Source: a virus (lineage: Duplodnaviria; Caudoviricetes). From it: 64,000 nucleotides of DNA. The position numbers and the translations under genes were made by a program. The notes under the pieces were generated by a model. The model was not told the DNA's origin and ran no database searches. It worked only from the letters and a program-made list of their open reading frames with translations. The stretch lies in the IMG/VR virus record IMGVR_UViG_3300017913_002143, positions 10,909 through 74,908 of that record; one strand, 5' to 3'. Positions 37,956 through 64,000 of the stretch are shown one piece after another (the first letter of the stretch is position 1; each line of letters starts with the position of its first letter).

Positions 37956-39149
37956 ATGGCAAGAGCAATAATAGCAATAGGAAGTGCGGGGAATGATGGT
38001 ACCGGTGATACCTTACGTGCCGGTGCAATTAAAATCAACGATAACTTTGCTGAACTTTACCAAGATGTTTCAAACCTAGGTCTTTTAGTTTCAGACTCTG
38101 CAGGAGGATTGAATCTTGAAGGTATTAGTTTTGATCAGCGTAGTGTAGTGTTTATTGGTGTAGATAGTCCAAACTCAACTCCTGCTGATAACAACGAAAC
38201 ATATTTAAGAGCAACTGAACCAACAAAAGATAATATTATCATCTTACCAGATTCTGGTGGTAATGTTGCCTTGACTCAAGACATTCCTAGGAAGGTGAGT
38301 CAACTTATTAACGACGCTGGATACGTAACAGGTAGTGGCGTAGGCATTGACTCAGCAATTGCATTAACATTGATTGGTGATAACTCTATTGACTCTATTG
38401 GTGTTATTCAGCTTATTGATGCAGCTTATATTCAGGCCAGAGAAAACAATCCAGCAGCTGGGTTAGACTCAGCATTAGTCAGACAAGAAATAGATCTGTA
38501 CGTTGATTCTGGATTTTTGAGAACTGCTGGTGAAACCGCATTCCTAGACTCAGCTGATTACTACGATACTATTGCAGCTAGCCATAGAGATAACTTCATA
38601 CCAATTAACAACAACACTAGAAGTTTAGGTGTTAACGCAACCAGATGGTCAGAACTATTTCTTGGAACAGCATTGGAAATTGATAGCGCTCGATTCATAT
38701 ATGATACAAGTGCTGATCAATTAACTATGGGTAAAGTTGCATCTTTAAAATTACAAGCAAATAATTTACAAGATAGTGCAATATTTGCATTAGGTAATAT
38801 ATCTGGAACAAGATACGTATCGCTGAACACAAATATTGTACCTTCAGCGGATAGTGCACTTGATCTTGGTGCAAGTACTCTGCAATGGCGAGATCTCAAA
38901 ATATCTCGTGCTATTCGTTTTGGTGATAGTGCATCGATAAGAAGACATCATCTTGGTGGTGGTATTCGTTTGAATCTTGCACGTTATGCAGACGCTGATC
39001 TTCCATCTGATGGAATGGCTGGAGATCTAATTATTATCACTGATGGTGATTCAGCTACACTTGGTCCAACACTAGCGTTTAAAGATAGTGACAACGGAAA
39101 TTATATTAAATTTAACACCGCGCAAGGAGTTGGCGGTGGTGGATTCTAA
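37956..39149 (+). CDS. gp9/gp10-type baseplate-fibre connector protein, Asp-Ser rich
   Basis: N-terminal IG..GNDGTGDTLR.GA.KINDNF.ELY motif of T4 gp9/gp10; 14 DS dipeptides. Confidence 0.75.
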   Translation: MARAIIAIGSAGNDGTGDTLRAGAIKINDNFAELYQDVSNLGLLVSDSAGGLNLEGISFDQRSVVFIGVDSPNSTPADNNETYLRATEPTKDNIIILPDSGGNVALTQDIPRKVSQLINDAGYVTGSGVGIDSAIALTLIGDNSIDSIGVIQLIDAAYIQARENNPAAGLDSALVRQEIDLYVDSGFLRTAGETAFLDSADYYDTIAASHRDNFIPINNNTRSLGVNATRWSELFLGTALEIDSARFIYDTSADQLTMGKVASLKLQANNLQDSAIFALGNISGTRYVSLNTNIVPSADSALDLGASTLQWRDLKISRAIRFGDSASIRRHHLGGGIRLNLARYADADLPSDGMAGDLIIITDGDSATLGPTLAFKDSDNGNYIKFNTAQGVGGGGF

Positions 39150-39168
39150 TCCATAAGGAAATAAAAAC

Positions 39169-40524
39169 ATGCCAGCAATTATTACATCATCTCTCAGAAA
39201 GCAGATTGCTCGTGACTTCTTCGATGGATTCACAGCAGGAAGCAGCCTATACTATATTAGTATAGGTCGTTCACAATTATGGGATAGTAGTGATACAACA
39301 CCCACTCCTGTTGATACTCCAGGTACTATCCAAGATGTTCGTGACAACATGCAATCTGTTAAAAAGGTTCAAGGATCTTCTTTAGTTGTTCCACGTTACA
39401 ATTGGACAAGTGGTACTGTATACAATCAGTATGATGATACCGTACAAGGTATTCCAAGTCCAACATACTACGTGAAGACAGACAACAATCAAGTTTACCT
39501 TTGTTATGAAACAGGTAGAGATTCTGATGGTGCTGTCCAGCCATCAATTGTTGAGCCAACATATTCAAACCTACATCCATTTAGATTATCTGATGGATAT
39601 GTTTGGAAGTTCTTGTATACCATCTCAGCTGAGAGATCAAACAATTTTATGGCCGCAAACTTCATGCCTGTTCAAAAGATTGGATCTGTTGATTCTAACT
39701 CAACTGGTATTGCGGTACGTCAGAAAGAAGTACAGGATGCATCTCAAGCTGGTGAGATTGTAAACATTACTCTGACTGATGGTGGTGCTGGATATACAAC
39801 TACCGTACCAACAGTTACAATTACATCAACATCTGGTAGTGGTGCTGCTGCTACAGCTCACATTGACTCAGCTCTTGGTGTTGTAACACATATCACAATG
39901 GATCCAGATAGCTCACGTTTGAAGTTGGGTAGCAAATACTTTGCTCATCCAACAATTACAATAACTGGTGGTAGTCCTACAGCAGCTGCTACAGCTCGTG
40001 CAGTACTTGGACCAGATTCTGGATTTGGTAATGATGCAAGAGAAGACTTGAATGCCCAAGCATTAATGTTCAACTCTAAGATGGAAGGTGACGATAGTGA
40101 CCTGATCACTGGTCAGGACTTCAGACAAGTATCATTGGTCAAAGATCCAAGACAACGTAATGGTGTAGTGTTTACTGACTTGACTGGTAATGCTATGGAT
40201 AAGATGAAACTCAGCACAATCACTACAGCATTCACACGCGATAAAGTATTACTTGGTGCAACATCTCTTGCAAAAGCAAATGTTGTACACATTGATTCAA
40301 ATGAAATCTACTACACACGAACAAATCAAACTGGGTTTGCAGATTTTACAAATGGTGAAGCATTATCAGAAACAACAGGTGCTGGCGCAGGTATTATCGA
40401 CTCCGCTCTCATACGTCCTAAATACGATAGAGAAACTGGTGAGATATTATTCATTGACAACAGAGCAGCTGTGTTAAGAGATCCAACCCAGGCAGAAGAT
40501 ATAAAGATTATTATTCAATTCTAA
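39169..40524 (+). CDS. gp8: baseplate wedge protein gp8
   Basis: VVPRYNWTSGTVY..YD, VYLC, DGYVWKFLY and GEILFIDNR motifs. Confidence 0.88.
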   Translation: MPAIITSSLRKQIARDFFDGFTAGSSLYYISIGRSQLWDSSDTTPTPVDTPGTIQDVRDNMQSVKKVQGSSLVVPRYNWTSGTVYNQYDDTVQGIPSPTYYVKTDNNQVYLCYETGRDSDGAVQPSIVEPTYSNLHPFRLSDGYVWKFLYTISAERSNNFMAANFMPVQKIGSVDSNSTGIAVRQKEVQDASQAGEIVNITLTDGGAGYTTTVPTVTITSTSGSGAAATAHIDSALGVVTHITMDPDSSRLKLGSKYFAHPTITITGGSPTAAATARAVLGPDSGFGNDAREDLNAQALMFNSKMEGDDSDLITGQDFRQVSLVKDPRQRNGVVFTDLTGNAMDKMKLSTITTAFTRDKVLLGATSLAKANVVHIDSNEIYYTRTNQTGFADFTNGEALSETTGAGAGIIDSALIRPKYDRETGEILFIDNRAAVLRDPTQAEDIKIIIQF

Positions 40525-40535
40525 GGAACTGAAGT

Positions 40536-43500
40536 ATGGCTACTAATTTAACGACTACCGCTTTTCTCGATACATATCGTGATGACTTTAAGGATAGTAA
40601 TCACTATCACCGCATTCTATTCAAAAGCGGCAAGGTCCTCCAAGCTCGTGAGCTTACCCAAATGCAGACAATTATCCAGAAGGAAATTGAACGCATGGGT
40701 ACAAACATCTTCAAAGAAGGTGCAGCTGTGCTTGGTGGTGGCATCACAGTTAACAACAGATACGAGTTTATCAAACTAGACACATCAGTAAATGCATTAC
40801 CTGGTACTCCTTCTCAAATGAATGGAGTGACAATCACTGGGGCAACATCAGGTGTGATTGCAAAGGTTAGAGAAGTAGTCACAGCAACTGGTGGTGATCC
40901 AGATACTTTGTATGTTGAGTATACATCAACTTCTTCTGGTACAGCTGGTGCAACTACTCCAGTTCGTTTTAGTCCTGGTGAGAATCTAACTAACTCTGTT
41001 ACACTACTTACAGTACAAACAACTAACACTGGTGTGAATCCAGCAGTTGGTGCAGGTACAAGAGCATCGACAAATACAGGTGTATTCTTTACTCAAGGTC
41101 ACTTTGTACAAGCTGATGCACAATCTAAAATTATTTCAAAATATACTAGTGATCCATCCTTGAATGTTGGATTTAGTGTTGAGCAAAGAATATTCACTGT
41201 TGATGATGATGGTGCGTTATATGACAATCAAGGTGCCGTACCAAATGTAACAGCACCTGGTGCTGATCGTTATCGTATCGATATGAACCTTGCACTAGAG
41301 TCTGAAGTAGACTCAGATGAAATCTTTGTATTCTATGCAAAGATTCAAAAAGGTAAAGTTATTGAAGTTGTTTCATCAGATGACTCATACAATAAGATTG
41401 AAGACTTCTCCGCAAAACGTATTCATGAGATTAATGGTGACTTTATTAAAAATCAGTTTAGAATTGTATATGAAGACCATCCAACAGATAATACAAAGAT
41501 CAATCTCAAAGTGTCTCCAGGTCTTGTATACCTGAATGGATATCGTAATGAGTATACAGGTACAACTACTATTGCTGTTAACAAAGCTGATGATACTGAA
41601 CAGATTACAAATGATGTAGTATCGGTTGGTATTGGTAATTATATTTTATGTGATAGTTCTCTAGGTGTTCCAAACATTGCTGAGTTTGAACAGTATAACA
41701 TTAAGGATGGATATCAGAACACAGGATCAACAATTGGTACATGTCGTGTTAAGTCGGTAGAAGAAGATGGAGCAAACATCCGTTACTACTTGATGGACAT
41801 TAGTATGAATGCTGGATCTAACTTCAAAGATGCTCGTTCAATTGCTGTCAACTCAACTAACTATGCAAACCCAATCCTTGAGAATGGTGATGCGGTACTA
41901 AAAGATAAGATTAACAACACCCTTATCTTCCCATTCCACTATCCACGCGTGCAGGGCTTGACAAACATATCTTATAATGTGTTACAAAGAATCACTAGAA
42001 CAACTGATGGTTCTGGTAATGCTTCTATGCCAACTCTGTCTGGATCAGAATTGTATGTTGATACAGGTGACTGGATCATTGCACGTACAGATACTGGCGC
42101 TTTGATTACGCCAACAATCACTTTATCAGGTGGTGGTACTGGTGCATCAATTAGTAGCGGTCCAACATCAACGACAATTGAGATCATTTATCTCAAGTCA
42201 GTTAATGCAAGTGCAAGAACAAAGACACTCACAAACACTACCACCACAACTACTGTAACAACACCTGCAACTGGTGCACCATACATTAGTTTGGGTAAAG
42301 CTGATATTATTGATATAGAAAGAGTTCGCATCACAGACTCGGCTGGTCAAGACATTAAAGGTCGTTGGATCCTTGACAATGGCCAAAGAGATAACTTCTA
42401 TGATGTTGGTAGATTGGTTCTCAAAGGTAATCAAACTGCACCACAAGGTAATGTGTTTGTGAGGTTCAACTATTATGCACATGGTGCATCTGGTGACTTC
42501 TTTGGACCTACTTCATATCCTTCTCCATATGGTGATATTCCAACATACACAAATAAGAGTGGGACGACGTTTGATCTAAAGAGCCACATTGATTTCCGCT
42601 CACGTAAGGATGATACGGGAGCTAACTTTACTGCAGGTACAGCAAGATATAATGCTCTGCCACAGAACACATCTCTTGTAACCGCAGATGTAACATACTA
42701 CTTGCCACGCTATGACAAGTTAATTGCAACAAATCCTCTAAAGTATGTTGAAGGTACATCAGCATTTGATCCACAGTTCCCACAAACACCTGCAGGTGCA
42801 ATTGAGCTGTATCAGGTTAAAATGAATGCTGGTACTGTTAATGACAGTGATATGCAAATGAAACGTATTGAAGCAAAAGGCTTCACTATGAAGGATATTG
42901 CTCGACTTGAAGATCGCTTAGACAATCTTGAAGAAGTTACAGCACTGAGCTTACTGGAAGTTGATCTGAAAAACTTCTCTGTACTTGATTCAGCTGGATT
43001 AGATCGTACAAAGTCTGGCTTCTTGGTTGATAACTTTATTGACCATCAATCATCTGCTGTTGATAATATTGAATATAGAGCATCTGTTGATCCTCAGAAT
43101 AAGATTCTAAGACCTTCATTCTCAGAGAATGAAATTAAGATGATGTATGATTCATCTCTGTCAACCAATACTATTCAGAAGGGTGATAATGTATACATTA
43201 AGTATACACATGAGTCATTCATCAATCAAGATATTGCATCTGGTACAGAAAACATTAACCCATTTGCTGTTATCACAAATGATGGCTATATGAATCTATC
43301 TCCAAGCTCAGACACTTGGAAAGAAACAAAGGTTCGTCACACTAAAGTTATCTCAGGTGGTACTAGACTTGACAATCAGTCAAAGAGACTGTTTGGTAAC
43401 TGGAACTGGAACTGGGGTGGGGTTGCAGTAGGTACAAATGTAACTGGTGCAAGAACTCAAGTTGAAGGTCAGTTTAACGTAACTCGAGTTAATCGTGTTG

Positions 43501-45608
43501 TATCAGAACAAACAATTCGTGAAGTTGTTGACGAGCGTATTGTTGATGTAGCAATGATCCCATTCATGCGTTCATTAAGAGTATACTTCAAAGTTGATGG
43601 ACTGAGACCAAACACTCGTCACTATCCATTCTTTGATGGTGTATCGGTTGCTGATTGGGTAGATGGTACAGCATCATTTACAAGATCTGGTTCAGATGGA
43701 AACATTGTTGGTAATAGATTTAATCGTGCAACAACACATCCAGATACTTCATCAGCATCTGATAGAGTTCTGACTACAAACTCAGCTGGTTCAGTAAGTG
43801 GATCATTCTTTATTCCAAACACATCTGCAATCAGATTCAGAACAGGTACATTACCATTTGAGTTGATGGATGTTACTGGTGGTGATAAGAACTTTGCTAC
43901 TTCATCAGCAACAGGATACTTCAGTTCAACTGGTGTACTGAATACAGTTGATCGTACAGTAAAGGCAACTCGTCAGATTGCAATCAGATCTGTTGTAACT
44001 GGACGTTCACGTATCACACCTCCACAGGATGATGGTGATCCAAATCCAAATGATCCGTTGGCACAATCATTCTTTGTGAATAAGCCAAATGGTGTATTCA
44101 TTACTAAGGTGAAGGTGTTCTTCAAGACTAAGGATGCTGCAATTCCTGTACAGCTTCAGATTCGTCCAATGGTTAATGGATATCCTGATAACATTCCAGT
44201 ACCAGGAGCAGTTAAGTTCTTGAATCCTGTTGATGTAAATACATCAGCTGATTCTAATACAGCTACAGAATTTGAGTTTGATGAGCCAGTATTCTTGAGT
44301 GGCTTGACAGAGTATGCTATTGTATTGCTAGCGCAGTCAGTAGACTATCTTGTGTATGTAGCTGAAACAGAAAAGTTTGAGATTGGATCTACAGCACGTA
44401 AGGTTGCAAAACAGCCTACACTTGGATCACTATTCTTATCACAGAATGGTTCCACATGGAATGCAGCTCAGAATAAGGATATGAAGTTTGAGTTGATGCA
44501 AGCTAAGTTCCCTCATACTTCAGCTAATGTTGTTCTTGAAAACGCAAACCTACCAAAGCAGCTGCTGCCAATTGATCCTCTAACAATGGATTCACAGTCA
44601 TCAACATTGACTGTACTTGCACCAAACCATGGGTTGGTTGTAGGTGACTTGGTTAACTTGACTGGTCTTGATAGTACAACAAACTATGGTGGTACTAACA
44701 TTACAGGTGCTGTAGTAAATGGTAACCATACAATTACAGCAATTGATGAAAACACATATCAAGTTACTTTGAGTCAATCGTCAGATTCTGGATTAACATT
44801 TGGTGGCGATGCTGTTCTAACATCTCAGAACTATCAATATGAGATTATGGTACCAAGATTCCAAACGCTTGTACCACAGAATACAGATGTTACAATTGAT
44901 GTTAAATTAACTCAAGGTAAGTCACTTGCTGGTACAGAGACACAATACAATAAAGATAATTCTTATACACGTATTGTATTGAATGAAGATAACTACTTTG
45001 ATACACCAAAAGTTGTTGCAAACGAGAATCGTGAAGGAGTATCAATGTCTGGTGATAAGTCAGCAACAATCAAGCTGAACTTGACTACATCAGATAGTGA
45101 TCTAGCTCCTGTGATTGACTTGCAGAGAGCTGGATTATGGTTATTCCACAATGAGATTGACTTCCAAGACTCTGCTGGTTCACCTGGTGTACTAACAAAT
45201 AACAACAGAAACAATCCAGTTGACTTTGCTGATGAGACTGATCCAACAGGTGGTTCACATCTTGCAAAGCATATTGTAAAACCTGTTGTACTTGAGTCTC
45301 CATCAGTTGGTATCAAAGTACTGCTTTCTGCTAATAAGCCTTCGACAGCAAACTTTGATGTATACTACAAGGCAATCCAAGAAGATGAGAACTTTGAGGA
45401 CTTCAACTGGGTTGAGATATCTGCAGAAGAAAATGTGCAGTCTGATGAAGATCCATCAGTGTACAGAGATTATACATATTTGATTGGTGGCCAGCAAGGT
45501 TTCTCAACACCGTTTGATAAGTTTATCATTAAGATTGTTATGAAAACTACAAATGCTGCTCTTGTACCATCATTCAAAGACTTGAGGGTGATAGCACTGG
45601 CAGTATAA
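40536..45608 (+). CDS. large virion structural protein (VrlC-like)
   Basis: Y.DDF...NHY.RILFK.G..LQARELTQ.Q, APGADRY, KSGFLVDNF and DPLAQSF motifs. Confidence 0.8.
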   Translation: MATNLTTTAFLDTYRDDFKDSNHYHRILFKSGKVLQARELTQMQTIIQKEIERMGTNIFKEGAAVLGGGITVNNRYEFIKLDTSVNALPGTPSQMNGVTITGATSGVIAKVREVVTATGGDPDTLYVEYTSTSSGTAGATTPVRFSPGENLTNSVTLLTVQTTNTGVNPAVGAGTRASTNTGVFFTQGHFVQADAQSKIISKYTSDPSLNVGFSVEQRIFTVDDDGALYDNQGAVPNVTAPGADRYRIDMNLALESEVDSDEIFVFYAKIQKGKVIEVVSSDDSYNKIEDFSAKRIHEINGDFIKNQFRIVYEDHPTDNTKINLKVSPGLVYLNGYRNEYTGTTTIAVNKADDTEQITNDVVSVGIGNYILCDSSLGVPNIAEFEQYNIKDGYQNTGSTIGTCRVKSVEEDGANIRYYLMDISMNAGSNFKDARSIAVNSTNYANPILENGDAVLKDKINNTLIFPFHYPRVQGLTNISYNVLQRITRTTDGSGNASMPTLSGSELYVDTGDWIIARTDTGALITPTITLSGGGTGASISSGPTSTTIEIIYLKSVNASARTKTLTNTTTTTTVTTPATGAPYISLGKADIIDIERVRITDSAGQDIKGRWILDNGQRDNFYDVGRLVLKGNQTAPQGNVFVRFNYYAHGASGDFFGPTSYPSPYGDIPTYTNKSGTTFDLKSHIDFRSRKDDTGANFTAGTARYNALPQNTSLVTADVTYYLPRYDKLIATNPLKYVEGTSAFDPQFPQTPAGAIELYQVKMNAGTVNDSDMQMKRIEAKGFTMKDIARLEDRLDNLEEVTALSLLEVDLKNFSVLDSAGLDRTKSGFLVDNFIDHQSSAVDNIEYRASVDPQNKILRPSFSENEIKMMYDSSLSTNTIQKGDNVYIKYTHESFINQDIASGTENINPFAVITNDGYMNLSPSSDTWKETKVRHTKVISGGTRLDNQSKRLFGNWNWNWGGVAVGTNVTGARTQVEGQFNVTRVNRVVSEQTIREVVDERIVDVAMIPFMRSLRVYFKVDGLRPNTRHYPFFDGVSVADWVDGTASFTRSGSDGNIVGNRFNRATTHPDTSSASDRVLTTNSAGSVSGSFFIPNTSAIRFRTGTLPFELMDVTGGDKNFATSSATGYFSSTGVLNTVDRTVKATRQIAIRSVVTGRSRITPPQDDGDPNPNDPLAQSFFVNKPNGVFITKVKVFFKTKDAAIPVQLQIRPMVNGYPDNIPVPGAVKFLNPVDVNTSADSNTATEFEFDEPVFLSGLTEYAIVLLAQSVDYLVYVAETEKFEIGSTARKVAKQPTLGSLFLSQNGSTWNAAQNKDMKFELMQAKFPHTSANVVLENANLPKQLLPIDPLTMDSQSSTLTVLAPNHGLVVGDLVNLTGLDSTTNYGGTNITGAVVNGNHTITAIDENTYQVTLSQSSDSGLTFGGDAVLTSQNYQYEIMVPRFQTLVPQNTDVTIDVKLTQGKSLAGTETQYNKDNSYTRIVLNEDNYFDTPKVVANENREGVSMSGDKSATIKLNLTTSDSDLAPVIDLQRAGLWLFHNEIDFQDSAGSPGVLTNNNRNNPVDFADETDPTGGSHLAKHIVKPVVLESPSVGIKVLLSANKPSTANFDVYYKAIQEDENFEDFNWVEISAEENVQSDEDPSVYRDYTYLIGGQQGFSTPFDKFIIKIVMKTTNAALVPSFKDLRVIALAV

Positions 45609-45808
45609 TGAAAGCAAGAGTTGAAGGTCATAATACTCTTATTCGTGACTTGAATAATAATGCTATTTTGAATGTTGATGCAGTATCTGTTCAACGAGCT
45701 CGAGAAGCGAAGAGGGTTAGGAAGAATAACAAACAGGAACTTGAAGAATTAAAGCATGAGGTTGGTGAACTCAAGTTAATGATGAGAGAGATACTGGATA
45801 GACTATAA
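45608..45808 (+). CDS. small coiled-coil protein
   Basis: V.GH..L.RD...AI.N motif; coupled to the VrlC-like gene. Confidence 0.7.
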   Translation: MKARVEGHNTLIRDLNNNAILNVDAVSVQRAREAKRVRKNNKQELEELKHEVGELKLMMREILDRL

Positions 45809-51560: not shown

Positions 51561-51575
51561 ACAATATATAGTAGC

Positions 51576-52058: not shown

Positions 52059-52061
52059 ATA
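52054..52061 (+). promoter_or_regulatory. late promoter for the fibre operon
   Basis: TATAAATA at the end of the kinase-like gene. Confidence 0.7.
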
Positions 52062-52105
52062 AAGGTAATTATCATGTCGAGTTACTTAGAATCGAGATTG
52101 GACAA

Positions 52106-52459: not shown

Positions 52460-52707
52460 TGGCAACTAGTACTACAACTTATATTAAAAAGATTACCGTC
52501 GGTGTACCAATTAGAAAGGTCACTGGTGCGGAAGCGCAAACACTTTCAGACATAACAGATGTTACATCATATGATTCTGTTGGACCTGGGCATCTATTAA
52601 TATTTAATGCTGCTACACAGAAGTGGCAATCAAATAGAGTTCTTGCAGAAGTAACTATTGTTGGAGGGGGAATAGGTTCAGTTGATTCTCCTGGAGGTGA
52701 CTTCTAA
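52459..52707 (+). CDS. small fibre-associated protein
   Basis: L.DI.DV....G.LLIFN....KW motif; coupled on both sides. Confidence 0.65.
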
Positions 52708-54273: not shown

Positions 54274-57200
54274 ATGGCAACACCAAAAGTACTCATAAAA
54301 CGATCTTCCGTTGCGGGGAGAATACCAACTACTGGTGATCTTGATTATGGCGAACTCGCCATTAACTTTCAAGATGGTAAGATCTATTACAAAGACGCAT
54401 CCAATAATATTAAGGCTTTTGTAGACTCTGCACGAGTCCAGGCTATTGCAGATGCTGTTGAAGTTACAGCTCAAGCCCAGCTAGACTCAGCTGAAGTAAC
54501 TTCACTTATTGATGCAGCATATATCCAAGCACGTCAAAACAATTTCTTAGATTCAGCACTTGCAATACAACTGATTGACTCAGCCTATGTTCAGTTAAGA
54601 CAAACACTTGTAGGTGAAGCTGGTGTTGACTCTGCTGGTGTTGTTACAATAATCAACACTACTGTTAATCAGTCATTTGTTAGAAATTTAGAAACACCAA
54701 ACCCAACATTTGGTAATGACTTTGTTGATAGTAATGCTGTTGAAGCAATTATTACTCAACCTTATGTTAGAAATTTTGAAACTCCAAACCCAACTCTTGG
54801 CAATGACTTTGTAGATAGTGGCCAGGTTGAATTAATTGTTGATTCATCATATGTTCAGAATCGTCAGATCAAATACACAACCGCTGACTTTGTAGACTCA
54901 GCTGGTGTATCAGATATTATACTTGGTGATGTAACAACATCATATGTTCGTGATCGTCAAATTAAATATACAACTGCAGACTTCCCAGATTCTGCAGGAG
55001 TACAATTAATTGTTGATACTAACTATATTCGTGGCAAGGCTGATTCAAATTATATCAAGACTGCTATTGATTCAGCATATGTTGTTGGGATAGCAGATTC
55101 AGCTTATATCAAGACAGTACAATATGGTGATGATGAGAAGTTAACATTTGGCGCAAATCCAGATCTTGAAATATATCACAACTCGACTCAAAATAAAAAC
55201 TATGTGTTAGCATATGGTGGTGGTAACATAACAATTGGTGGCCAGAATGTTATTCTTGGTGGTCTTGCTGGTACAACTACTAACCTGAAATCTACAAGCG
55301 GTGCTGGTATTGAGTTATATCACGGTGGCACTAAGAGACTAGAAACAAGTACTTCTGGTGTTGGTGTAACGGGTAAGATTACTGGATTGACAGATCCAAC
55401 AGCAAGCCAAGATGCTGCAACAAAATCTTATGTTGACGCAAAAGTTGCAAGTGGTACAGACTCGGCAACTGTAAGTGCTATTATTCTTGCTGATGTAGAT
55501 TCAGCATATGTAAGAGCAAGAGCTGCTGACCAAGAATTGTCTACTACAGATTCAGTATCATTTGCTGGGTTGACAGTTTCTGGTAACCTAACTGTCACTG
55601 GTACAACAACAGAAGTAAACACCGTTGTTTATACAATTAATGACCCATTGCTACACCTTGCAGATAGTAATGAGCAATCTGATGTAGTTGATATCGGTCA
55701 TATTGGACACTATTACCGTAACGGACAAAGACGGCATACTGGTATATTCCGTGATGCATCAAATGAAGAATACTATATCTTCAATAATATGGTTGACTCT
55801 GCATTTGATTCAGTACTTCCACCAAACGTAATTAATCGTTCTGCTACTGACTTTGAACTCTCCATATTGAATGTTGGAACACTTCGTGGTATCTATGCAG
55901 GATTTGATTCAGACTTTACACAAAAGTCTACAACAAACCTGAGTGAAGGATCAAATCTATATTATACAAAGACTCGTGTTGATTCTGATATATCAGCAGC
56001 GTTTGATGATTCTAGCAATACTGTTAATGTTACAATTAATAATTTTGTTACTGATACAGTTGATTCAGCTTATGTTCTTGCACGTGTAAATGATGCACCA
56101 TTCCTAGATTCAACTTACACAACAGCTTTGATTGATACAAATTATGTTCAAGCAAGGCAGGTCAAATACAATACATCTAACTTTACAGATTCAGCATTTG
56201 TTACTGGTCTACCAGTTAGCACATTTACTAATGATGCAAACTACTTAGACTCAACTACTGTACAAGGTGTAATTGATCAGACATATGTAACAGGTCTAAT
56301 TGATACTACTTACTTAGACTCAGCTGAAACAATTGCTCTTATTGATTCCGCTCATGTACAACTCCACGCACTTGATGGTGATAAATCTTTAAATGGATTA
56401 AAGGCACTTCAGTTCATTCATGATTCAGATGCAGCAACATATACTGTTACAGTTGCCTCTAAGGATGCCTCTCATCGTTATCAAGGTACTGGTTCAGGTA
56501 GTGGTTACAAGATTGATGGAACATTTGCTCCCACAATTGTAATGAATCCAGGTAACACATATCGGTTTGATCTGTCAGATGCTACTAATGGTTCTCATCC
56601 GTTATACTTCTATTATGATGCTGCAAAGACAACTCAGTATACTACAAATGTAGTTAATAACTATTCAAGTAATTCTGCGGGTAGTGCTGGATCTTATATT
56701 GAGATTACTATAACGGATGCAACTCCTCCTGTACTTCATTATCAGTGTGGTAATCATGGTTACATGGGTAACATGATATTCACCCAGACCCGTAATCTCA
56801 CAGGGTTTGATACAGATGATCTGACAGAAGGTTCAACTAATCTATACCATACTACAACAAGAGTCAACACAGCAATTGATAATAGAGTTGATCAGACCTT
56901 TGTTGATAACCTAGCCGTTAACTATAGCTCACTTACTGGCACTCCAACAATTCCAACATTGGGTGGTGACTTTGTTGATAGTGCTCAGGTTGAAGCAATC
57001 ATTGATTCTGCTTACGTTCAGTTAAGACAGTCTGGTGGTGAGATTACAATCCAAGAAGAAGGTACTCCTCTATCAACTGCCGCAACTACTCTGAACTTTG
57101 TTGGGTCAGCTGTTACAGCATCTGGCACCGGTACAACAAAAACAATTACAATTAGCCAAGCTGAAGGTGGTACTGACTCAGCAACTGTTGTATCAATTAT

Positions 57201-58587
57201 TAACACAACAGTTGACTCAGCTTACGTACAACTAAGAGAAGCTGCAGGTGGTGGTGCTGGTGGACTAGATTCAGCACTTGTAACACAACTAGTTGATTCT
57301 GCTTATGTTACCGCTAGACAGTCTGGTACAGTCAACATTACAGATGCTATCACTCAAACAGTATTCTACTATACAGCTGATTCTGGCCAGACAACATTCA
57401 CTGGTGCAGACGATGATGGTGGAACATTAGCATATACTACTAACAAAATAGCTGTATACATTAATGGTCTTTATCAACAAGAAACTGCTGACTATACGGC
57501 AACAAATGGTACTAGTGTTGTACTTACAGAAGCTGCTGATAGTGGTGATATCATTGCTATCGAAACTCTAAAGGGTTCAAACTTAACATCACAACCAATC
57601 TTCAGAAAAGTATATCACTATACAGCAACAAATGGTCAGACTGCATTTACTGGTGCTGATGATTTCAGTGACACATTAACATATAAAGCCGGTAGAGTTC
57701 AAGCATATTTGAATGGTATCATGTTGATTGGTACAACCGACTTTACCGCTACTGATGGATCTACTGTTAACTTAACTGTGGGTGCTGATAGTGGTGATAT
57801 TGTTTCGATTGAGAAACTTGATGGTACTGGCATGGGTATTGACTCAGCTGTTGCCAATACTCTAATTGATGCAAGAGTCACACAGTCATTTGTAAACAAC
57901 TTGAATGTTGATGCGGAAACTCTTGGTGGTCGTGATAGTTCATATCTCCTGAATTATAACAACTTTACTAATACACCAACCATTCCAACACTTGGAAACG
58001 ACTTTGTTGATTCTGATGAAGTTGTAACATTGATTACAGCTAATGCTATAGACTCAGCTGCTGTGATTGCATTAATTGATTCTGCCTATGTGCAGGCTCG
58101 TGAAGGTGCTGGTGGTGGCGGTACAGTTGACTCTGCAACCACAATTGCAATTGTTGAAGATGAGTTAGCAGTCTTCTCTGTTGGCGATCTAGTAGGTGCT
58201 GATGGTAATCCTGGAGACGCTTTGATAAGTGATGGTGATGGAACAGCTAGCTGGAATGGTAATGTAGCTCTTTCATATGAATTCAAAGTTAACTATGATT
58301 CATTAGGTGTCATCTCTAGCGTGTCAGATCTTCCAACAGGATTCACAGCTGACAGTACTGGTAGTACTTCAATCATCATTAGCCATAATACTGGACGTTC
58401 AGTTAAAGATATCAGTTACAACTCATATGTAAGTGGTACATTGAAGCTACGGCATCCTAGTAGAGATAGTGCTGATGTAGTAACATATGCTGTTGCTGAT
58501 CGCCTAAATAAGTTCACCGCAACAGTAGGTATTGCAAACACAGGAGCAGATGCAGATCAATACGCTTGGGTAAATATCACATTCTAA
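54274..58587 (+). CDS. long tail fibre protein with dense DSAYV-type repeats and a cupredoxin-like insert
   Basis: IKRSSV.GRIP...L.YGELAIN N-terminus; QDAATKSYVD; about 47 DS dipeptides; H...CGNHGYM. Confidence 0.85.
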   Translation: MATPKVLIKRSSVAGRIPTTGDLDYGELAINFQDGKIYYKDASNNIKAFVDSARVQAIADAVEVTAQAQLDSAEVTSLIDAAYIQARQNNFLDSALAIQLIDSAYVQLRQTLVGEAGVDSAGVVTIINTTVNQSFVRNLETPNPTFGNDFVDSNAVEAIITQPYVRNFETPNPTLGNDFVDSGQVELIVDSSYVQNRQIKYTTADFVDSAGVSDIILGDVTTSYVRDRQIKYTTADFPDSAGVQLIVDTNYIRGKADSNYIKTAIDSAYVVGIADSAYIKTVQYGDDEKLTFGANPDLEIYHNSTQNKNYVLAYGGGNITIGGQNVILGGLAGTTTNLKSTSGAGIELYHGGTKRLETSTSGVGVTGKITGLTDPTASQDAATKSYVDAKVASGTDSATVSAIILADVDSAYVRARAADQELSTTDSVSFAGLTVSGNLTVTGTTTEVNTVVYTINDPLLHLADSNEQSDVVDIGHIGHYYRNGQRRHTGIFRDASNEEYYIFNNMVDSAFDSVLPPNVINRSATDFELSILNVGTLRGIYAGFDSDFTQKSTTNLSEGSNLYYTKTRVDSDISAAFDDSSNTVNVTINNFVTDTVDSAYVLARVNDAPFLDSTYTTALIDTNYVQARQVKYNTSNFTDSAFVTGLPVSTFTNDANYLDSTTVQGVIDQTYVTGLIDTTYLDSAETIALIDSAHVQLHALDGDKSLNGLKALQFIHDSDAATYTVTVASKDASHRYQGTGSGSGYKIDGTFAPTIVMNPGNTYRFDLSDATNGSHPLYFYYDAAKTTQYTTNVVNNYSSNSAGSAGSYIEITITDATPPVLHYQCGNHGYMGNMIFTQTRNLTGFDTDDLTEGSTNLYHTTTRVNTAIDNRVDQTFVDNLAVNYSSLTGTPTIPTLGGDFVDSAQVEAIIDSAYVQLRQSGGEITIQEEGTPLSTAATTLNFVGSAVTASGTGTTKTITISQAEGGTDSATVVSIINTTVDSAYVQLREAAGGGAGGLDSALVTQLVDSAYVTARQSGTVNITDAITQTVFYYTADSGQTTFTGADDDGGTLAYTTNKIAVYINGLYQQETADYTATNGTSVVLTEAADSGDIIAIETLKGSNLTSQPIFRKVYHYTATNGQTAFTGADDFSDTLTYKAGRVQAYLNGIMLIGTTDFTATDGSTVNLTVGADSGDIVSIEKLDGTGMGIDSAVANTLIDARVTQSFVNNLNVDAETLGGRDSSYLLNYNNFTNTPTIPTLGNDFVDSDEVVTLITANAIDSAAVIALIDSAYVQAREGAGGGGTVDSATTIAIVEDELAVFSVGDLVGADGNPGDALISDGDGTASWNGNVALSYEFKVNYDSLGVISSVSDLPTGFTADSTGSTSIIISHNTGRSVKDISYNSYVSGTLKLRHPSRDSADVVTYAVADRLNKFTATVGIANTGADADQYAWVNITF
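54274..58587 (+). repeat. degenerate protein-level repeats (IDSAYVQ.R, PT.GNDFVDS, IKYTTADF.DS)
   Basis: Repeated motifs visible in the translation, with variable codons. Confidence 0.85.
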
Positions 58588-58596
58588 GGATTTGAA

Positions 58597-59844
58597 ATGG
58601 CAATTAATATTACAAAAGTGCTAGATGAAATCCAAACTAGATTGGATGATTCTACCCAAACTGATAGAAGTCTAACTGCTCTTATTGCAGCCAGTAACCG
58701 TATTGATAATTCTGGTACTGGTGTTCTAACATACAGATCTACTGGACATCTTCCACAATATACAGATTCAGCATACTACGGCACAATAGCGTATGTTGAA
58801 GTTGATAACGTATTTGGTGATAGTAGTGGAAGATTCTATTATGGATCTTCTCGCGACTCTGGTTGGATACAATTCACTACATTACAAGATAGTGATGAAG
58901 CAACAATAACTGTTCCTCCTTCTGGACCATCTAATCCAGCTTATGTTGGTACTAATTATGGATATTCAATGGGTGGCGGCAGTAGCCCGTATACTCAGAA
59001 CATTGATCAATATTCATATGCATCTGATGGAAACGCAACAAACGTCGGTGCTATGGACAATCCAGACTCAACCGCAGTTTGGACAGGTACTGGTGGGGGA
59101 AGTGAAACTCATGGATACCATATGGGTGGAACTCCCGTAGCACCTTTAGCGTCTCCAATCTTCAAATTTCCGTATACGTCGGGAACTCCAATTTCTGATA
59201 CCACATATGATGTGGGTGCAAATCAGATACATAGATATGGTCACTACGAAATGTGCGGCGATAGAACAAACATATACATTGTCGGTGGATATAGAGGTCC
59301 GAGCTACCCTACACTTTCAAATAGAAATACTATTCTAAATTTTGCAGCGTCATCAGATGGAGCAACGATTACTGATTACGGCGATCTATCAGCTTCAAAG
59401 AGATATGCAAATACCGGATCATCGGATACTTATGGATATGCAGTAGGAGGATACACTTCTGTTGGTCTTAATGTAATCGAGAAATGGCCATTTTCTGCAG
59501 CAGGCAATGCAACTGATGTTGGAGATTTACTTCACACTAGTTATGCCGCAGCGGCTTCAAGTTCGGGTACACATGGATATCTCCACGGTGGATTAACTCC
59601 CGGTGCAACTAATGTAATTCAGAAATATCCTTTCTCTACTGATGGCGATGCAACAGATGTTGGTGATATACTTGCGGCAAAACATAGTGGCACCGGTACA
59701 TCATCTGGTACACATGGATATCAGTCAGGAGGTAGTCCCGCAGTGAACACAATACAAAAATTTTCATTCTCAACTGACGGTGATGCTACCGATGTAGGAG
59801 ACTTAGCTTTCAGTCGAATAGCTAGTGCAGGAACACACTACTAA
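58597..59844 (+). CDS. Kelch/beta-propeller-repeat virion protein, paralog 1
   Basis: About 45-aa repeats GY..GG...I.K..F..DG.ATDVGDL after a DS-rich N-terminal domain. Confidence 0.75.
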   Translation: MAINITKVLDEIQTRLDDSTQTDRSLTALIAASNRIDNSGTGVLTYRSTGHLPQYTDSAYYGTIAYVEVDNVFGDSSGRFYYGSSRDSGWIQFTTLQDSDEATITVPPSGPSNPAYVGTNYGYSMGGGSSPYTQNIDQYSYASDGNATNVGAMDNPDSTAVWTGTGGGSETHGYHMGGTPVAPLASPIFKFPYTSGTPISDTTYDVGANQIHRYGHYEMCGDRTNIYIVGGYRGPSYPTLSNRNTILNFAASSDGATITDYGDLSASKRYANTGSSDTYGYAVGGYTSVGLNVIEKWPFSAAGNATDVGDLLHTSYAAAASSSGTHGYLHGGLTPGATNVIQKYPFSTDGDATDVGDILAAKHSGTGTSSGTHGYQSGGSPAVNTIQKFSFSTDGDATDVGDLAFSRIASAGTHY

Positions 59845-61118
59845 TGGCAATCAATCTTACAAATGTATTGAATCAAATTGAAACCAGGCATGCTGCTATT
59901 GATAGTAATACAGATGCAGCTGAGCACACTAGACTTGATGCTATCAACGATAGAATAAACTCAATGGGTGGTATTCTTACATACCGCTCAACTGGTCACT
60001 TACCTGAAATGGTTGACTCAGGGTATGTTGGTACAATTGCATATGTTGCTGCAGATAATGTATTTGGTGATAGTAGTGGTGCATTCTATATGGGTACGTT
60101 CAGAGATTCTAATTGGGTTAGAATAGCAACAAAGCAAGATAGTGATGAAGCGGCAATACCAGAACCTGGATCTGGTCCTTCAGTAGACTTTAGTCCATGG
60201 CCAGAAGGTGTATTACAAGGAGGAACATACGGATACGCTGTATTTGGATATGGTCCTCCAGCTGTTCTGTCAAGACATTCATTTACATCCGATGGTAATG
60301 CTACTACAGTACAACCGTCATTTTCTCCTGGTGTTGGTGGTGGTACACAATCAGATACAAAGATATATGGTTTTCAAGGTACTAGTAAAGTTATGCATAC
60401 GGTTCCGTTTGCTAGTGATACTTCAACAAAGACTACTACACCTGCACCAGATCGAGGAGCATCATATAATCAACAGAGAGGTGGTGTTGGATTCTCAAGT
60501 AGCAAATACTATCAAATGGCTGTAGGTCCAACTACTACCTTATCTACATACGTTCAATCGGGTCCTTTTGCTGCAGATACAGCTTCTACTGCTCCAGCAT
60601 CATTAGCGTATACAACATATGGATATGCTACAGTTACTACTAGTGGTACTGATGTGTATATGTCAGGGATGGCAGAAGGGGCTACTCCTAATCTAAACTG
60701 GAATGCTATTCAAAAAATGCCAACTTCATCTGAAGATACAATATCTGATGTGGGTGATATGGTATCTGCTCGAGCTGGTCATGGTAATGGAGCAATGAGC
60801 TCAACCCATGGTTATCATATAGGAAGAGGATATCCTACTCCATATTCAAATCAGATTGATAAGTATCCATTTGCTGCTGATGGAGATGCAACGGATGTTG
60901 GCGATCTAACAATACCTGCAGGATATATGACTGCTAGTTCATCAACCACTCATGGATATCGGTATGGTGGTAACACAACCACACCAGGGCCTACTACTGG
61001 TAAAGTTATAGAGAAGTGGTCATTTTCATCAGATGGTAATGCTACAGATGTTGGCGACTTGAGTAACAGCTCACCATCTGCACCAAACTCACAAGTAGCG
61101 GGGAGTGCATTTACATAA
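59844..61118 (+). CDS. Kelch/beta-propeller-repeat virion protein, paralog 2
   Basis: N-terminal domain similar to paralog 1; divergent repeat domain. Confidence 0.75.
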   Translation: MAINLTNVLNQIETRHAAIDSNTDAAEHTRLDAINDRINSMGGILTYRSTGHLPEMVDSGYVGTIAYVAADNVFGDSSGAFYMGTFRDSNWVRIATKQDSDEAAIPEPGSGPSVDFSPWPEGVLQGGTYGYAVFGYGPPAVLSRHSFTSDGNATTVQPSFSPGVGGGTQSDTKIYGFQGTSKVMHTVPFASDTSTKTTTPAPDRGASYNQQRGGVGFSSSKYYQMAVGPTTTLSTYVQSGPFAADTASTAPASLAYTTYGYATVTTSGTDVYMSGMAEGATPNLNWNAIQKMPTSSEDTISDVGDMVSARAGHGNGAMSSTHGYHIGRGYPTPYSNQIDKYPFAADGDATDVGDLTIPAGYMTASSSTTHGYRYGGNTTTPGPTTGKVIEKWSFSSDGNATDVGDLSNSSPSAPNSQVAGSAFT

Positions 61119-62305
61119 TGGCTGACTTAACAACACTCATTACAAATATTCAAGCTGATGTAGATGCAGCAGACTCTGATACCTCAATGAGAGATATCTT
61201 AGCTTTACTTCATCGCGGAAGTAAGATAACTACGTTCCACAAATGGTATGATAGCGCTGGTGTGTTGCCAATTGATTCTGCTTATGGTGGATATATTGCA
61301 TTTACTAAAGGTGACAATGCACTGCGTGTGTTCAATGATTCTGATATGCGTTGGGCAGCATTAGATAGTGCAGTCGCAACAGCTGGTTCAACCGGTAATC
61401 CAAGTGGTGGAACCGCGTACGGATATACAATAGGTGGATCACCATGGCCTACTGGAGGAAATGTGATTGAAAGATTTTCCTTCACCGTTGATGGTAATTC
61501 TACCGATGTGGGTGACCTCACACATGCACATTATGCTGGTGGAATTGGACAAAGTTTAACTCATGCATATTATATGGGTGGAACAGATGAACTTGCACCA
61601 GTATATTATACCAACCGAATTCAAAAAATACAGTTTGCTTCTTCTGGTGATGCTACAGAACTTAGTTATTATTTAACTGGTCAACGCACGCGTATGCAAA
61701 ATGGTGTGCATACCACCCCTACACATGCATTTTTAGCAGGTGGTTATAGAAGTCCTGGAGGATTTTATAGTGAAATTCAAAAATATTCGTATGCTGATGA
61801 TGCCAATGCATCAGATACAGGTGGCGATTTAAGTTCAGCAAGTGCTGATTTTGCTGGCCAAATGTCTCCAACTCATGCGTATCTGACAGGAGGTACTCCG
61901 TCGGTGAATCCTGATACAGGGAAAATCTATAAATATCCATTTGCAATTACCAGCGGAACTGAAACAGCCGTTGGAGATCTAACTCCTCAATATACAACCC
62001 AACATGATCAATCCGGTGCAAGTTCAGCTACCCATGGATACGTATTTTCAGGAACGATTCTAGATGCAATAGAAAAGTTTCCTTTTGCTGCAGATGCTAA
62101 TTCAACTGATGTAGGTGATTTAGTTCAAATGGCGTGGAGATCAGGTTGCACACAATCAACATCTCATGGATATAATTTAGGAGGTTCATCCCCTGCAGTT
62201 TCAGTAAATAATATTCAAAAATTTGATTTTTCATCAGATGGAGATAGTACAGATGTTGGCGATTTAACAGTTGCTAGAACCTATGCGCGTGGGGCAGCAG
62301 AATGA
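61118..62305 (+). CDS. Kelch/beta-propeller-repeat virion protein, paralog 3
   Basis: Same repeat type; different N-terminal domain (YDSAGVLP). Confidence 0.75.
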   Translation: MADLTTLITNIQADVDAADSDTSMRDILALLHRGSKITTFHKWYDSAGVLPIDSAYGGYIAFTKGDNALRVFNDSDMRWAALDSAVATAGSTGNPSGGTAYGYTIGGSPWPTGGNVIERFSFTVDGNSTDVGDLTHAHYAGGIGQSLTHAYYMGGTDELAPVYYTNRIQKIQFASSGDATELSYYLTGQRTRMQNGVHTTPTHAFLAGGYRSPGGFYSEIQKYSYADDANASDTGGDLSSASADFAGQMSPTHAYLTGGTPSVNPDTGKIYKYPFAITSGTETAVGDLTPQYTTQHDQSGASSATHGYVFSGTILDAIEKFPFAADANSTDVGDLVQMAWRSGCTQSTSHGYNLGGSSPAVSVNNIQKFDFSSDGDSTDVGDLTVARTYARGAAE

Positions 62306-63480
62306 CAGAAACAGCACTACAAACTAAAATAAACAACGCTGACTCAAACACCTCAATGTCTGAGCTGTTGAATATGTTGCATTCAGCAAAAGAATATTCA
62401 TACCATTCTTTGTATGACTCTGCTGGTGTACTTCCAGCTGCAGACTCTGCTAACATTGGTCGTATAGCTTTTGCGGAAGCAACTGATGCTATGTATGTAT
62501 TTGTTGGGATGGATAGTGGATGGCGAGTAGTTGATAGTGATGCATCAGCTCCAAGTATTCCACCTGTTGCTCCAGTATTTGCTGGTGAAAATTATGGATA
62601 CTCAATGGGTGGTGGATCAAGTCCGTACACCCAGAACATTGATAATTATCCATTTGCCAGTGATACAAATGCTACTAATGTTGGTGCAATGGACAATCCA
62701 GACCCAACCGCAGTTTGGTCGGGTTCTGGTGGTGGTAGTACTACTCATGGATATCATTTAGGTGGATCACCTGTATCACCTTTCTCCTCGCCAATTTTTA
62801 AGTTCCCATACACATCAGGAACTCCAATTTCTGATACAGGAAATGATATTGTTGCGAGTCAGGTACATAGATATGGTCACTATGAAATGTGTGGTGACAG
62901 AACAAACATATACATTGTCGGTGGATATAGAGGCCCCGCATATCCAACACTAGCAAACAAAAATACTATTTTAAGTTTTGCAGCCACATCTGACGGTTCA
63001 GCAATTACAGATTATGGTGATCTTACAGTTGCTAGAAGGTTTAATCAAACTGGAACATCAGAGACACATGGATATTCAGCTGGAGGATATACATCTACTG
63101 CTATTAATACGATCGATAAATGGCCCTTTGCGGCCGCAGCAAATGCAACAGATGTTGGAGACTTAACTGTAGCTGGTTACGCGGCTACTGGGGCTAGTTC
63201 AAGTACACATGGATACATAGCTGGTGCACTGACACCAGCTGCAACTAATGTAATTGAAAAGTATTCATTTTCAGTAGATGGTAATTCTTCAGATGTTGCT
63301 GATCTATTTGAACAAAAAAGCCAGGGCGCTGGTGCGTCATCCACTACTCATGGATATATTGCAGGTGGTAATCCAGCAACAGTAACTATACAAAAATATT
63401 CTTTTCTATCAGACCAAGATGGAACTGATGTTGGCGACTTGGCTTTCTCAAGACGAGCTAACGCAGGAACTCATTACTAG
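62302..63480 (+). CDS. Kelch/beta-propeller-repeat virion protein, paralog 4
   Basis: N-terminal domain like paralog 3; repeat domain closely matches paralog 1. Confidence 0.75.
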   Translation: MTETALQTKINNADSNTSMSELLNMLHSAKEYSYHSLYDSAGVLPAADSANIGRIAFAEATDAMYVFVGMDSGWRVVDSDASAPSIPPVAPVFAGENYGYSMGGGSSPYTQNIDNYPFASDTNATNVGAMDNPDPTAVWSGSGGGSTTHGYHLGGSPVSPFSSPIFKFPYTSGTPISDTGNDIVASQVHRYGHYEMCGDRTNIYIVGGYRGPAYPTLANKNTILSFAATSDGSAITDYGDLTVARRFNQTGTSETHGYSAGGYTSTAINTIDKWPFAAAANATDVGDLTVAGYAATGASSSTHGYIAGALTPAATNVIEKYSFSVDGNSSDVADLFEQKSQGAGASSTTHGYIAGGNPATVTIQKYSFLSDQDGTDVGDLAFSRRANAGTHY

Positions 63481-63484
63481 ACAG

Positions 63485-63492
63485 TATAAATA
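63485..63492 (+). promoter_or_regulatory. late promoter
   Basis: Intergenic TATAAATA, 8 nt before ATG 63501. Confidence 0.7.
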
Positions 63493-63500
63493 GGTGTACT

Positions 63501-64000
63501 ATGGCAATCAATATTAAAAACTTAGAAGAGCTGATTCAGAAGAAAGCATATGCAGTTACTTCATCTACACCTACATCTGACCTAGGTGATATAGTTGAAG
63601 CATCGCTACTTGCAACAAACAGTTTGCGAGAGTATGATTCTGCTGGACTGTTACCAGCAGCTACATCTAATGAAAAGATTGCGTTTGTTAAGAGTGATAA
63701 GTCTATTAGATTCAATAATGGATCAAAATGGGATTCATTAACATCAGGTGCAGCACAAGCAGGTGCGGCTGGAGGTGCTGAGCCTTCAGTACGACAGGCT
63801 GAAAATTATGGTTTTACAGCCGGTGCTGTAGTACCATCTGTTGCTCCTTCTTGGAATTATATTCAGAAATTTTCTGTGACTGCAGATGAAAATGCTACAG
63901 ATATTGGAGATACATTAGACTATACAGGTCAGGCAGCTGGAGCTTCAAGTTCAACTCATGGATACATGATGGGTGGATTTACTAGTTATGGTCCTAATGC
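63501..64000 (+). CDS. Kelch/beta-propeller-repeat virion protein, paralog 5 (truncated by window end)
   Basis: Translated by hand: MAINIKNLEEL...YDSAGLLP...IQKFS...NATDIGD...SSSTHGY; no stop codon before 64000. Confidence 0.75.
   Translation, partial: MAINIKNLEELIQKKAYAVTSSTPTSDLGDIVEASLLATNSLREYDSAGLLPAATSNEKIAFVKSDKSIRFNNGSKWDSLTSGAAQAGAAGGAEPSVRQAENYGFTAGAVVPSVAPSWNYIQKFSVTADENATDIGDTLDYTGQAAGASSSTHGYMMGGFTSYGPN

Follow-up and report, generated by a model that had tools for sequence, protein, structure and literature searches.

We analysed a 64,000-nucleotide stretch of viral DNA (positions 10,909 to 74,908 of IMG/VR virus record IMGVR_UViG_3300017913_002143; hereafter the window), in which the dipeptide Asp-Ser (DS) is strongly over-represented in the proteins of the outer baseplate and tail fibres. 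The window makes up 64 kilobases (kb) of a 74.9-kb contig with an estimated CheckV completeness of 36%, and the source of the contig is an uncultured marine T4-like myovirus. Judged by the baseplate wedge protein gp6, its nearest relative among 50,697 phage genome records was Phage C48C1 (41% identity), followed by Methylophilales phage Melnitz, Pelagibacter phage HTVC008M and cyanomyoviruses at 30–34% (32–34% for HTVC008M and Melnitz). We compared the contig with the clade relatives G001–G004, G006 and G016–G018 and with the outgroups C48C1, HTVC008M, G011, G012 and G013, of which G011 and G012 are complete genomes. The relative G001 is a sister-lineage contig of 177.5 kb that is 86% complete.

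Organization of the DS-rich region

The DS-rich genes encode the outer baseplate (gp9-like, gp8 and VrlC/DUF4815 proteins) and the fibre block, and all lie on the plus strand. A 355-amino-acid (aa) baseplate wedge subunit (36863..37930; 5 DS, 1.8 expected) is followed by a 397-aa gp9-like baseplate–fibre connector (37956..39149; 14 DS, 3.4 expected), which matches Pfam T4_gp9_10_N at residues 5–39 only, by a non-repeat 451-aa gp8-like baseplate wedge protein (39169..40524; 9 DS, 3.3 expected) and by a giant VrlC-like baseplate protein carrying DUF4815 (40536..45608), whose 14 DS against 9.6 expected amount to an enrichment that is marginal at most. Next come a 316-aa protein (45808..46758) with 18 DS (3.8 expected), for which Pfam and PHROG searches gave no family, and its paralogue-like neighbour of 231 aa (46769..47464), in which 11 DS (1.4 expected) take 11 of the 15 Ser. 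Beyond a cassette of minus-strand genes, a 515-aa fibre protein (52707..54254; 8 DS, 3.6 expected) has an F-D-S-D-F...NLYYT module in common with the adjoining 1437-aa long fibre (54274..58587), which holds 47 DS (11.0 expected) and has globular modules at residues 282–370 and 716–900 that are free of DS. Four complete propeller-type fibre paralogues (58597..63480) end the series.

This order of genes, with VrlC/DUF4815 ahead of fibre genes, a minus-strand cassette and, in relatives, radical-SAM genes, matches the 'host recognition cluster' of pelagimyophages. As described in the parts of the study by Zaragoza-Solas et al. (2020; PMC7029224) that concern this cluster, pelagimyophages and cyanomyophages carry VrlC and then a variable fibre block with interspersed cassettes of glycosyltransferases or radical-SAM proteins, an architecture like that found here; those parts mention no DS motif. 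The DS-rich fibres that we recovered from IMG/VR share a single synteny, gp6-wedge-gp9-gp8-VrlC-316-231-337-163-[cassette]-LtfC-82-515-long fibre.

DS is over-represented in outer virion proteins

An earlier note on this DNA had counted DS by hand and proposed that the Ser residues are O-glycosylated. All of its counts were exact on recount, including the controls gp32 (0), RNase H (0) and gp6 (1, with 4.1 expected). When pooled, the outer virion proteins contained 170 DS against 64.8 expected (P = 1.6e-27); elsewhere the numbers were 22 against 28.5 (a ratio of 0.77) for non-virion proteins and 17 against 22.5 (0.76) for the inner baseplate and tail. In shuffles that preserved composition, the gp9-like, 316-aa, 231-aa and 1437-aa proteins each reached p <= 2e-4, gp8 reached p = 0.005 and the 515-aa fibre p = 0.02, and no single propeller was significant alone. 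Among dipeptides, DS stood well ahead of all others in over-representation (z = 16), with SA next, and the top tripeptide was DSA with 46 copies; DG and DA showed no enrichment. As the earlier note had stated, Ala is the commonest residue after DS (DSA, 64 of 167 DS), ahead of DSD (26), DSS (17), DSN (15) and DSG (14).

The Ser codons in the DS of the 231-aa protein had been given as six AGT and five TCN, again exactly. Across all outer proteins, Ser in DS was encoded 65% by TCN and 36% by AGY, and other Ser 72% by TCN. Because the codon use of DS Ser resembles that of other Ser, selection acts at the peptide level, as had been argued before from the 231-aa protein.

DS is limited to proximal shafts and adaptors. 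Each complete propeller has 5 DS in its first 90–105 residues, in agreement with the earlier figure of about 5 in the first ~100 aa, and 0–1 in the distal ~300. In the four propellers and two fibres just upstream of the window, the N-terminal parts together held 39 DS against 9.7 expected and the distal domains 2 against 14.2, a depletion that is real, yet confounded by paralogous propeller blades carrying an SD motif.

Sequence context and Ser specificity of the motif

DS forms the centre of a longer word, [VIAL]-D-S-A-x-[VI]-x-x-[LI]-I, with the short form hydrophobic-D-S-A-x-[VI]. Relative to DS, the enriched residues are Val/Ile at -1 (2.6-fold), Ala at +2, Val/Ile at +4 (4.2-fold for Val), Leu/Ile at +7 and Ile at +8. 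The motif was found in at least four contexts. In the long fibre, 22 copies of a paired 18–22-residue unit, hydrophobic-DSAxVxxLIDSAYVQxRQ, carry 31 of the 47 DS, and the unit recurs in portions of gp9-like proteins. The C-terminal half of the 231-aa protein is built of pentads, A-x-hydrophobic-D-S, at spacings of 5 and 15, and such pentads are found in the 316-aa protein too. The third context comprises the N-terminal 90–290 residues of the four propeller paralogues and of the two fibres just upstream of the window, and the fourth consists of isolated DS in proteins without repeats, gp8 among them. A single repeat family behind all DS was ruled out, since a hidden Markov model of the 22-aa paired unit accounts, in the long fibre, for 31 of 47 DS but for few elsewhere; the spread over unrelated folds that the earlier note had described is borne out by several unrelated modules.

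Thr is nearly excluded from the Ser position. The ratio of DSA to DTA was 64:1 in the outer proteins of the contig and 3263:54 in 149 related metagenomic fibres, which contain 22,025 Ser and 21,554 Thr; NSA and ESA numbered 66 and 38 in the same fibres. The clade relatives G001 and G016 gave 81:12 and 53:13, and the whole genomes of C48C1, HTVC008M and G011 gave 13:12, 13:12 and 15:12. The motif is Ser- and Asp-specific, under selection, and found in one clade only, in the proximal part of the outer virion.

Conservation and spread of the motif

The fibre repeat matched 407 clusters among 1.84 billion representative proteins, and the best 150 of these clusters were all DS-rich, with a median observed-to-expected ratio of 3.5. 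No match to the repeat was found among the 50,697 records of isolate phages, and literature searches turned up no report of a hydrophobic-D-S-A motif. In the sister lineage, a 4062-aa fibre (G001:C1:56459-68647) contains 102 DS (37 expected) and 48 DSA. For the 231-aa protein there were 134 metagenomic homologues; in 41 sequences of the family (38–88% identity), D, S and A showed little or no variation at seven repeat positions, with almost no Thr, and the hydrophobic residues flanking DSA were conserved equally. DS sites were likewise conserved above other Asp and Ser in the gp9-like protein (11 orthologues) and in orthologues of the 316-aa protein and gp8.

Two alignments revealed DS at positions where homologous proteins lack it. 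In gp8, the window and G002–G004 have DS in common at eight columns, where C48C1 and HTVC008M read NE, DG, LA, AN, PG, VN, VD and the like; G001 has DS at three of the eight and at four columns of its own (7 DS, 2.9 expected). The gp6 alignment showed no clade-specific DS gains of this kind. In the long fibre, a module of about 90 residues, present as a tandem duplicate (residues ~1027–1190; window 57350–57850), is 46–49% identical to a region of the tail fibre of Pelagibacter podophage HTVC131P; the long fibre reads GADSGD, AADSGD and TADSGQ, and the podophage GATTGD and TATNAQ. Together with the Ser specificity, the gp8 columns and the HTVC131P module suggest that DS is selected as such, beyond the needs of the fold.

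The modules held in common with Roseobacter phage CRP-3, which is DS-free, and with HTVC131P, which has no DS there, fall outside the fibre repeat. The N-terminal adaptor GELAIN..DGKIYYKD is common to the DS-rich fibres and to those of many other phages, where no DS excess was seen, and the adaptor TPKVLLKRSSVAGRVP..GDL.YGELAINFADGKIYYKD (window 54274-54420, fibre residues 1–48) stands at the head of fibre genes across a wide range of phage types, in over 400 IMG/VR stretches, mostly free of a DS excess. DS in the fibres of HTVC008M stands at about the expected number, and C48C1 encodes a 1568-aa gp9-like protein (OQ984149.1 126305-131011) with a mild excess (31 DS against 17.7 expected, 7 DSA). 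The ~90-residue module also resembles tail fibres of about 20 further Pelagibacter podophages, and residues 716–942 of the long fibre match fibres of Melnitz and cyanophages at 42–52%; these podophage-, Melnitz- and cyanophage-like modules may hint at the host or receptor.

A conserved transferase core accompanies the motif

A plus-strand glycan cluster lies outside the host recognition cluster. Its variable part (7211..14170), patchy in relatives, comprises u261, a HAD-nucleotidyltransferase, a methyltransferase, an SDR epimerase/dehydratase, genes of no recognized family and a sulfotransferase. Its conserved transferase core (14167..16817), which holds the candidate modifying enzymes, consists of GT25a (14167-14871), GT25b (14875-15534), a weak GT8-like gene (15524-16204) and u206 (16197-16817). 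The two GT25 proteins scored 61.5 and 36.7 bits against Pfam Glyco_transf_25 (cut-off 24). The count of roughly ten glycosyltransferases in the earlier note was generous: the GT25 pair is backed by Pfam, and the rest are weak, namely three GT8-like matches (E 4e-4 to 1e-3) and one match to a PHROGs glycosyltransferase. The methyl- and sulfotransferases that the note had listed were recovered by Pfam, beside a HAD-nucleotidyltransferase fusion and the SDR enzyme.

A T4-type late-promoter word, TATAAATA (6727..6734, plus strand), stands upstream of the cluster in four genomes (the window, G001, G002 and G004), and in G001 the fibre genes run straight on into the cluster with no change of strand. 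Between this word and the cluster, a 123-aa open reading frame (ORF; 6834-7205) with a weak EF-hand match is 46–75% identical within the clade and 40% identical in HTVC008M. DNA glycosylation as the role of the cluster is weakened, because near-complete relatives yielded neither a ThyA-like nor a dCMP-hydroxymethylase-like gene. An assignment of u206 as Maf-like (PF01973) was not supported: the Atlas lead covered 13% of one cluster (score 0.92), Pfam gave E values of 0.11–0.17 in two of five orthologues, PF01973 was not found in five genomes, and a search of the PDB with the u206 family profile returned no Maf protein.

The core is 45–76% identical in G001–G004 and G016, as conserved as gp6 and gp8, and GT25a has 289 close relatives in IMG/VR. 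GT25 and DS-rich fibres occurred together in all nine adequately covered contigs (G000–G004, G006 and G016–G018), and both were missing from C48C1, HTVC008M, G011, G012 and G013. When all non-structural genes of the contig were compared, GT25a, GT25b and a 142-aa ORF (16863-17291), to which no function could be assigned, were present in five of five clade genomes and lacking from all three outgroups; this clade-only pattern was nearly matched by u261, u226 and the GT8-like gene. The core as a whole is missing from HTVC008M and G011. C48C1 has u206 alone (39% identity) and, with its mild DS excess and no GT25, may be an intermediate state.

The second set of sugar genes, the fibre-module cassette (48920..51644, minus strand), consists of two weak GT8-like ORFs, a Cys-rich ORF and a weak glycosyltransferase-like ORF, and is present in many relatives. 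The slot that contains it, flanked by the 163-aa gene and the LtfC-like chaperone gene (window 48479-52106; L017:5058-9020, L019:12098-18398, L030:6200-6874), carries in different relatives minus-strand GT8-like genes, two or three plus-strand radical-SAM genes with a QueC/PP-loop-like ORF, or almost nothing; its Cys-rich 229-aa ORF and a 207-aa ORF recur in either orientation. Radical-SAM genes replace the cassette in L017, L018, L019 and L028, and the slot is near-empty in L030. A link between DS and this cassette was ruled out, as the density of DS in the flanking genes was the same with the cassette, with radical-SAM genes or with a near-empty slot. The co-occurrence of DS with glycosyltransferase cassettes that the earlier note had named as a check thus holds, at the level of the clade, for the GT25 core and fails for the fibre-module GT8 cassette.

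The nearest relatives of GT25a among isolate phages are in Synechococcus phages S-8S53 and S-8S55 (OQ504982.1 17112-17444 and OQ504983.1 29502-29795; 27–28% identity), where they lie under genes annotated as 2-oxoglutarate (2OG)-Fe(II) oxygenase. This overlap recalls the pairing of a hydroxylase with a GT25 enzyme in collagen glycosylation. Within the fibre block of HTVC008M there are five 2OG oxygenase genes.

Comparison with known glycosylation systems

The earlier note had likened the motif to the general O-glycosylation sequon of Bacteroidetes, reportedly D-(S/T)-(A/I/L/V/M/T). D-S-A fits this formally, but the analogy fails in that Thr is excluded (64 DSA, 1 DTA); A, I, L, V, M or T follows 86 of 167 DS (51%). 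The compartments would differ as well: the Bacteroidetes system works in the periplasm, where a lipid-linked glycan is transferred to proteins that have been exported, and the assembly of T4-like virions is cytoplasmic. Mycobacteriophages, for their part, are reported to encode glycosyltransferases that decorate their own virion proteins, the targets being capsid and tail-tube subunits of phages of Actinobacteria, with no defined short sequon. The candidate targets here are instead fibres and the outer baseplate, and in G001 no DS excess was seen in the large proteins that we place, by size and position, in a putative head and tail-sheath region.

The SdgA and SdgB enzymes, the second analogy drawn in the earlier note, belong to family GT4 (GT-B, Glycos_transf_1). 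We found no GT4 domain (PF00534) in G000, G001, G016, G006 or G002, with a search in which all 14 control genomes scored. These cytoplasmic transferases O-GlcNAcylate the Ser-Asp repeat adhesins of staphylococci (PMC3794999), modifying Asp-adjacent Ser and so protecting surface proteins, and the Ser here is Asp-adjacent too; the parallel nevertheless breaks down in that the staphylococcal substrates are long (SD)n arrays and the longest run here is SDSD, found four times. TibC and AAH heptosylate the autotransporters TibA and AIDA-I (PMC4358343). TibC, which glycosylates many Ser but not Thr of TibA, is the closest working analogy beside the mycobacteriophage virions, with a dedicated transferase, a preference for Ser over Thr and a repetitive adhesin as substrate. 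It differs in being an iron-containing dodecameric heptosyltransferase rather than a GT25 or GT8 enzyme, and TibA presents a bacterial beta-helix passenger domain rather than a phage fibre.

An acceptor tag or a structural motif

The motif is found only in phages with a conserved set of sugar transferases, and may therefore be a tag for sugar-coating the tail. On the sequence evidence we tentatively favour the reading in which DS is the acceptor tag of phage-encoded O-glycosylation by the GT25 core. The points counted for it are the excess in outer proteins only, the Ser specificity, the unrelated modules, the DS gains in gp8 and the podophage-like module, the co-occurrence with GT25 and the placement of TATAAATA. 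In such a system, which would be cytoplasmic, GT25a, GT25b, the GT8-like protein and u206 (14167-16817) would form the core, fed by the neighbouring nucleotide-sugar genes, and the cluster would be transcribed late, together with the virion genes. Wherever a DS Ser is exposed, at the N-terminus of a helix or in a turn, it would acquire a short glycan while the fibre assembles or earlier, producing a glycan coat on fibre shafts and baseplate periphery but not on distal receptor-binding domains. The swappable GT8 cassette would not be required.

Several observations weigh against this reading. The comparison sets a single clade against outgroups, so that the co-occurrence amounts to one evolutionary event. 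To our knowledge, lipooligosaccharide synthesis is the only known role of bacterial GT25 enzymes, and we know of no enzyme encoded here from a family shown to O-glycosylate protein Ser. The distal domains, which are the most exposed, are without DS. Clade-specific avoidance of DS by non-virion proteins was looked for and not found, the ratio being 0.71 here against 0.69–0.80 in the outgroups. In the passages of PMC7029224 on the host recognition cluster, glycosyltransferases are taken as modifiers of host O-chains; in the present genome the transferase core that tracks DS lies outside that cluster, and HTVC008M, which has neither the motif nor GT25, is unlike this phage. The remaining counterpoints, the predicted helix starts and the invariant flanks of DSA, belong to the structural alternative.

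A purely structural role stands close to the tag reading, and we regard it as possible although doubtful. The Ser would be unmodified, and DS would serve as a cap or turn. In the helical repeat of fibres and gp9-like proteins, 9/18 residues long, its Asp would be an N-cap accompanied by a hydrophobic staple; in the 231- and 316-aa proteins, it would form the corners of a beta-repeat made of pentads. Its spread would reflect repeat duplication and module exchange among the fibre genes of the clade, and the sugar genes would act on the host envelope. In an AlphaFold2 (AF2) model of the first 300 residues of the long fibre, of low confidence past residue 85 (predicted local distance difference test, pLDDT, 31–50), nine of nine predicted helices start 1–2 residues after the Asp of DS (p <= 1e-5), which a cap alone would explain and which backs the helix N-cap alternative that the earlier note had itself raised. 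The residues enriched at -1, +2, +4, +7 and +8 point the same way; Val/Ile at -1 and +4 we take to be the pattern of an Asp N-cap with hydrophobic staple, in which hydrophobic residues stand at N' and N4 of the first helical turn, and in this model the fibre repeat conforms to it.

The 231-aa protein gave a related picture. Its AF2 monomer model (pLDDT 67) shows long beta strands and a long beta-hairpin at the repeat, with two N-terminal helices that also start at DS. Its family profile matched designed pentapeptide-repeat solenoids weakly (E = 0.026), in a manner that would put D-S at the corners, and its hydrophobic periodicity was strongest at five residues, but modest. PDB sequence searches with the fibre, 231-aa and gp9-like proteins returned nothing useful beyond the gp9/gp10 N-terminus. 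That DSA and its flanking hydrophobics hold fixed positions in the 41 homologues, that DS keeps to the proximal shafts and adaptors, that non-virion proteins avoid DS no more than those of the outgroups, and that DS density is unaffected when the fibre-module cassette is swapped or missing, would also follow from a structural role, and the published view of the glycosyltransferases as host O-chain modifiers (PMC7029224) agrees with it.

DS at helix starts and turns is therefore certainly part of the local structure. Generic helix-capping and turn propensities, however, do not predict a strong preference for Ser over Thr or an exclusion of Asn and Glu; by such statistics, the 60:1 ratio of Ser to Thr and the scarcity of NSA and ESA go beyond generic capping. 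Homologues of gp8, VrlC and the fibre module in marine outgroups fold without DS at those columns, the motif is present in several unrelated modules, and the models themselves are limited, the fibre being weak past residue 85 and the 231-aa monomer being unable to show the presumed trimer. Because the N-cap alternative is backed too, computation alone does not separate the structural and sequon readings.

It is unlikely, in our estimate, that the tag is read by something other than a glycosyltransferase, whether through another Ser modification (phospho-linked, or acylation) by an unrecognized enzyme of phage or host, docking of a clade-specific decoration or assembly protein, or a cation site. 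The signs of selection on DS do not say what reads the motif, the conserved clade-specific u261, u226, u206 and ORF 16863-17291 are without assignable function, and radical-SAM cassettes occupy the fibre-module slot of relatives. The acyl-carrier-protein site D-S-L, with its modified Ser at a helix N-terminus, is a precedent. However, five clade genomes yielded neither a Hanks-type kinase nor a phosphopantetheinyl transferase, no binding partner could be proposed, and the lack of enrichment of DG and DA speaks against a plain Asp-based cation site and against a site prone to isoaspartate formation. That DS arose by chance, from amino-acid composition or through a word at the DNA level is highly improbable: GAT or GAC followed by TCN makes GANTC, which is mildly over-represented in the whole window (282 against 220 expected from base composition) to an extent that DS codons do not account for, but the composition-preserving shuffles of four separate proteins, the AGY codons of 36% of DS Ser with a TCN share close to that of other Ser, and the recurrence of the excess in 407 protein clusters refute this explanation.

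Implications

The acceptor-tag reading implies that a widespread uncultured clade of marine T4-like phages has a dedicated, Ser-specific O-glycosylation system with the sequon hydrophobic-D-S-(A/small) and a GT25 pair at its core, sparing the receptor-binding tips; we consider this conceivable, though on balance not probable. It would be the first case, among phages of Gram-negative bacteria, of virion glycosylation directed by a sequon. Were the Ser residues glycosylated, the structures by which abundant ocean phages recognize their hosts would be predictably coated with sugar, which would bear on adsorption, stickiness to marine gels, protease resistance and rates of virus decay, and the glycosyltransferases of pelagimyophage-type genomes would no longer be read as modifiers of the host surface. 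The sequon and its enzymes would also make a compact, portable pair for glyco-engineering. If the motif is instead purely structural, it would be a new and sharply conserved building block of phage fibres, in which one hexapeptide serves as both helix cap and solenoid corner, and would aid the annotation and modelling of many fibre genes that stand unannotated in marine viromes.

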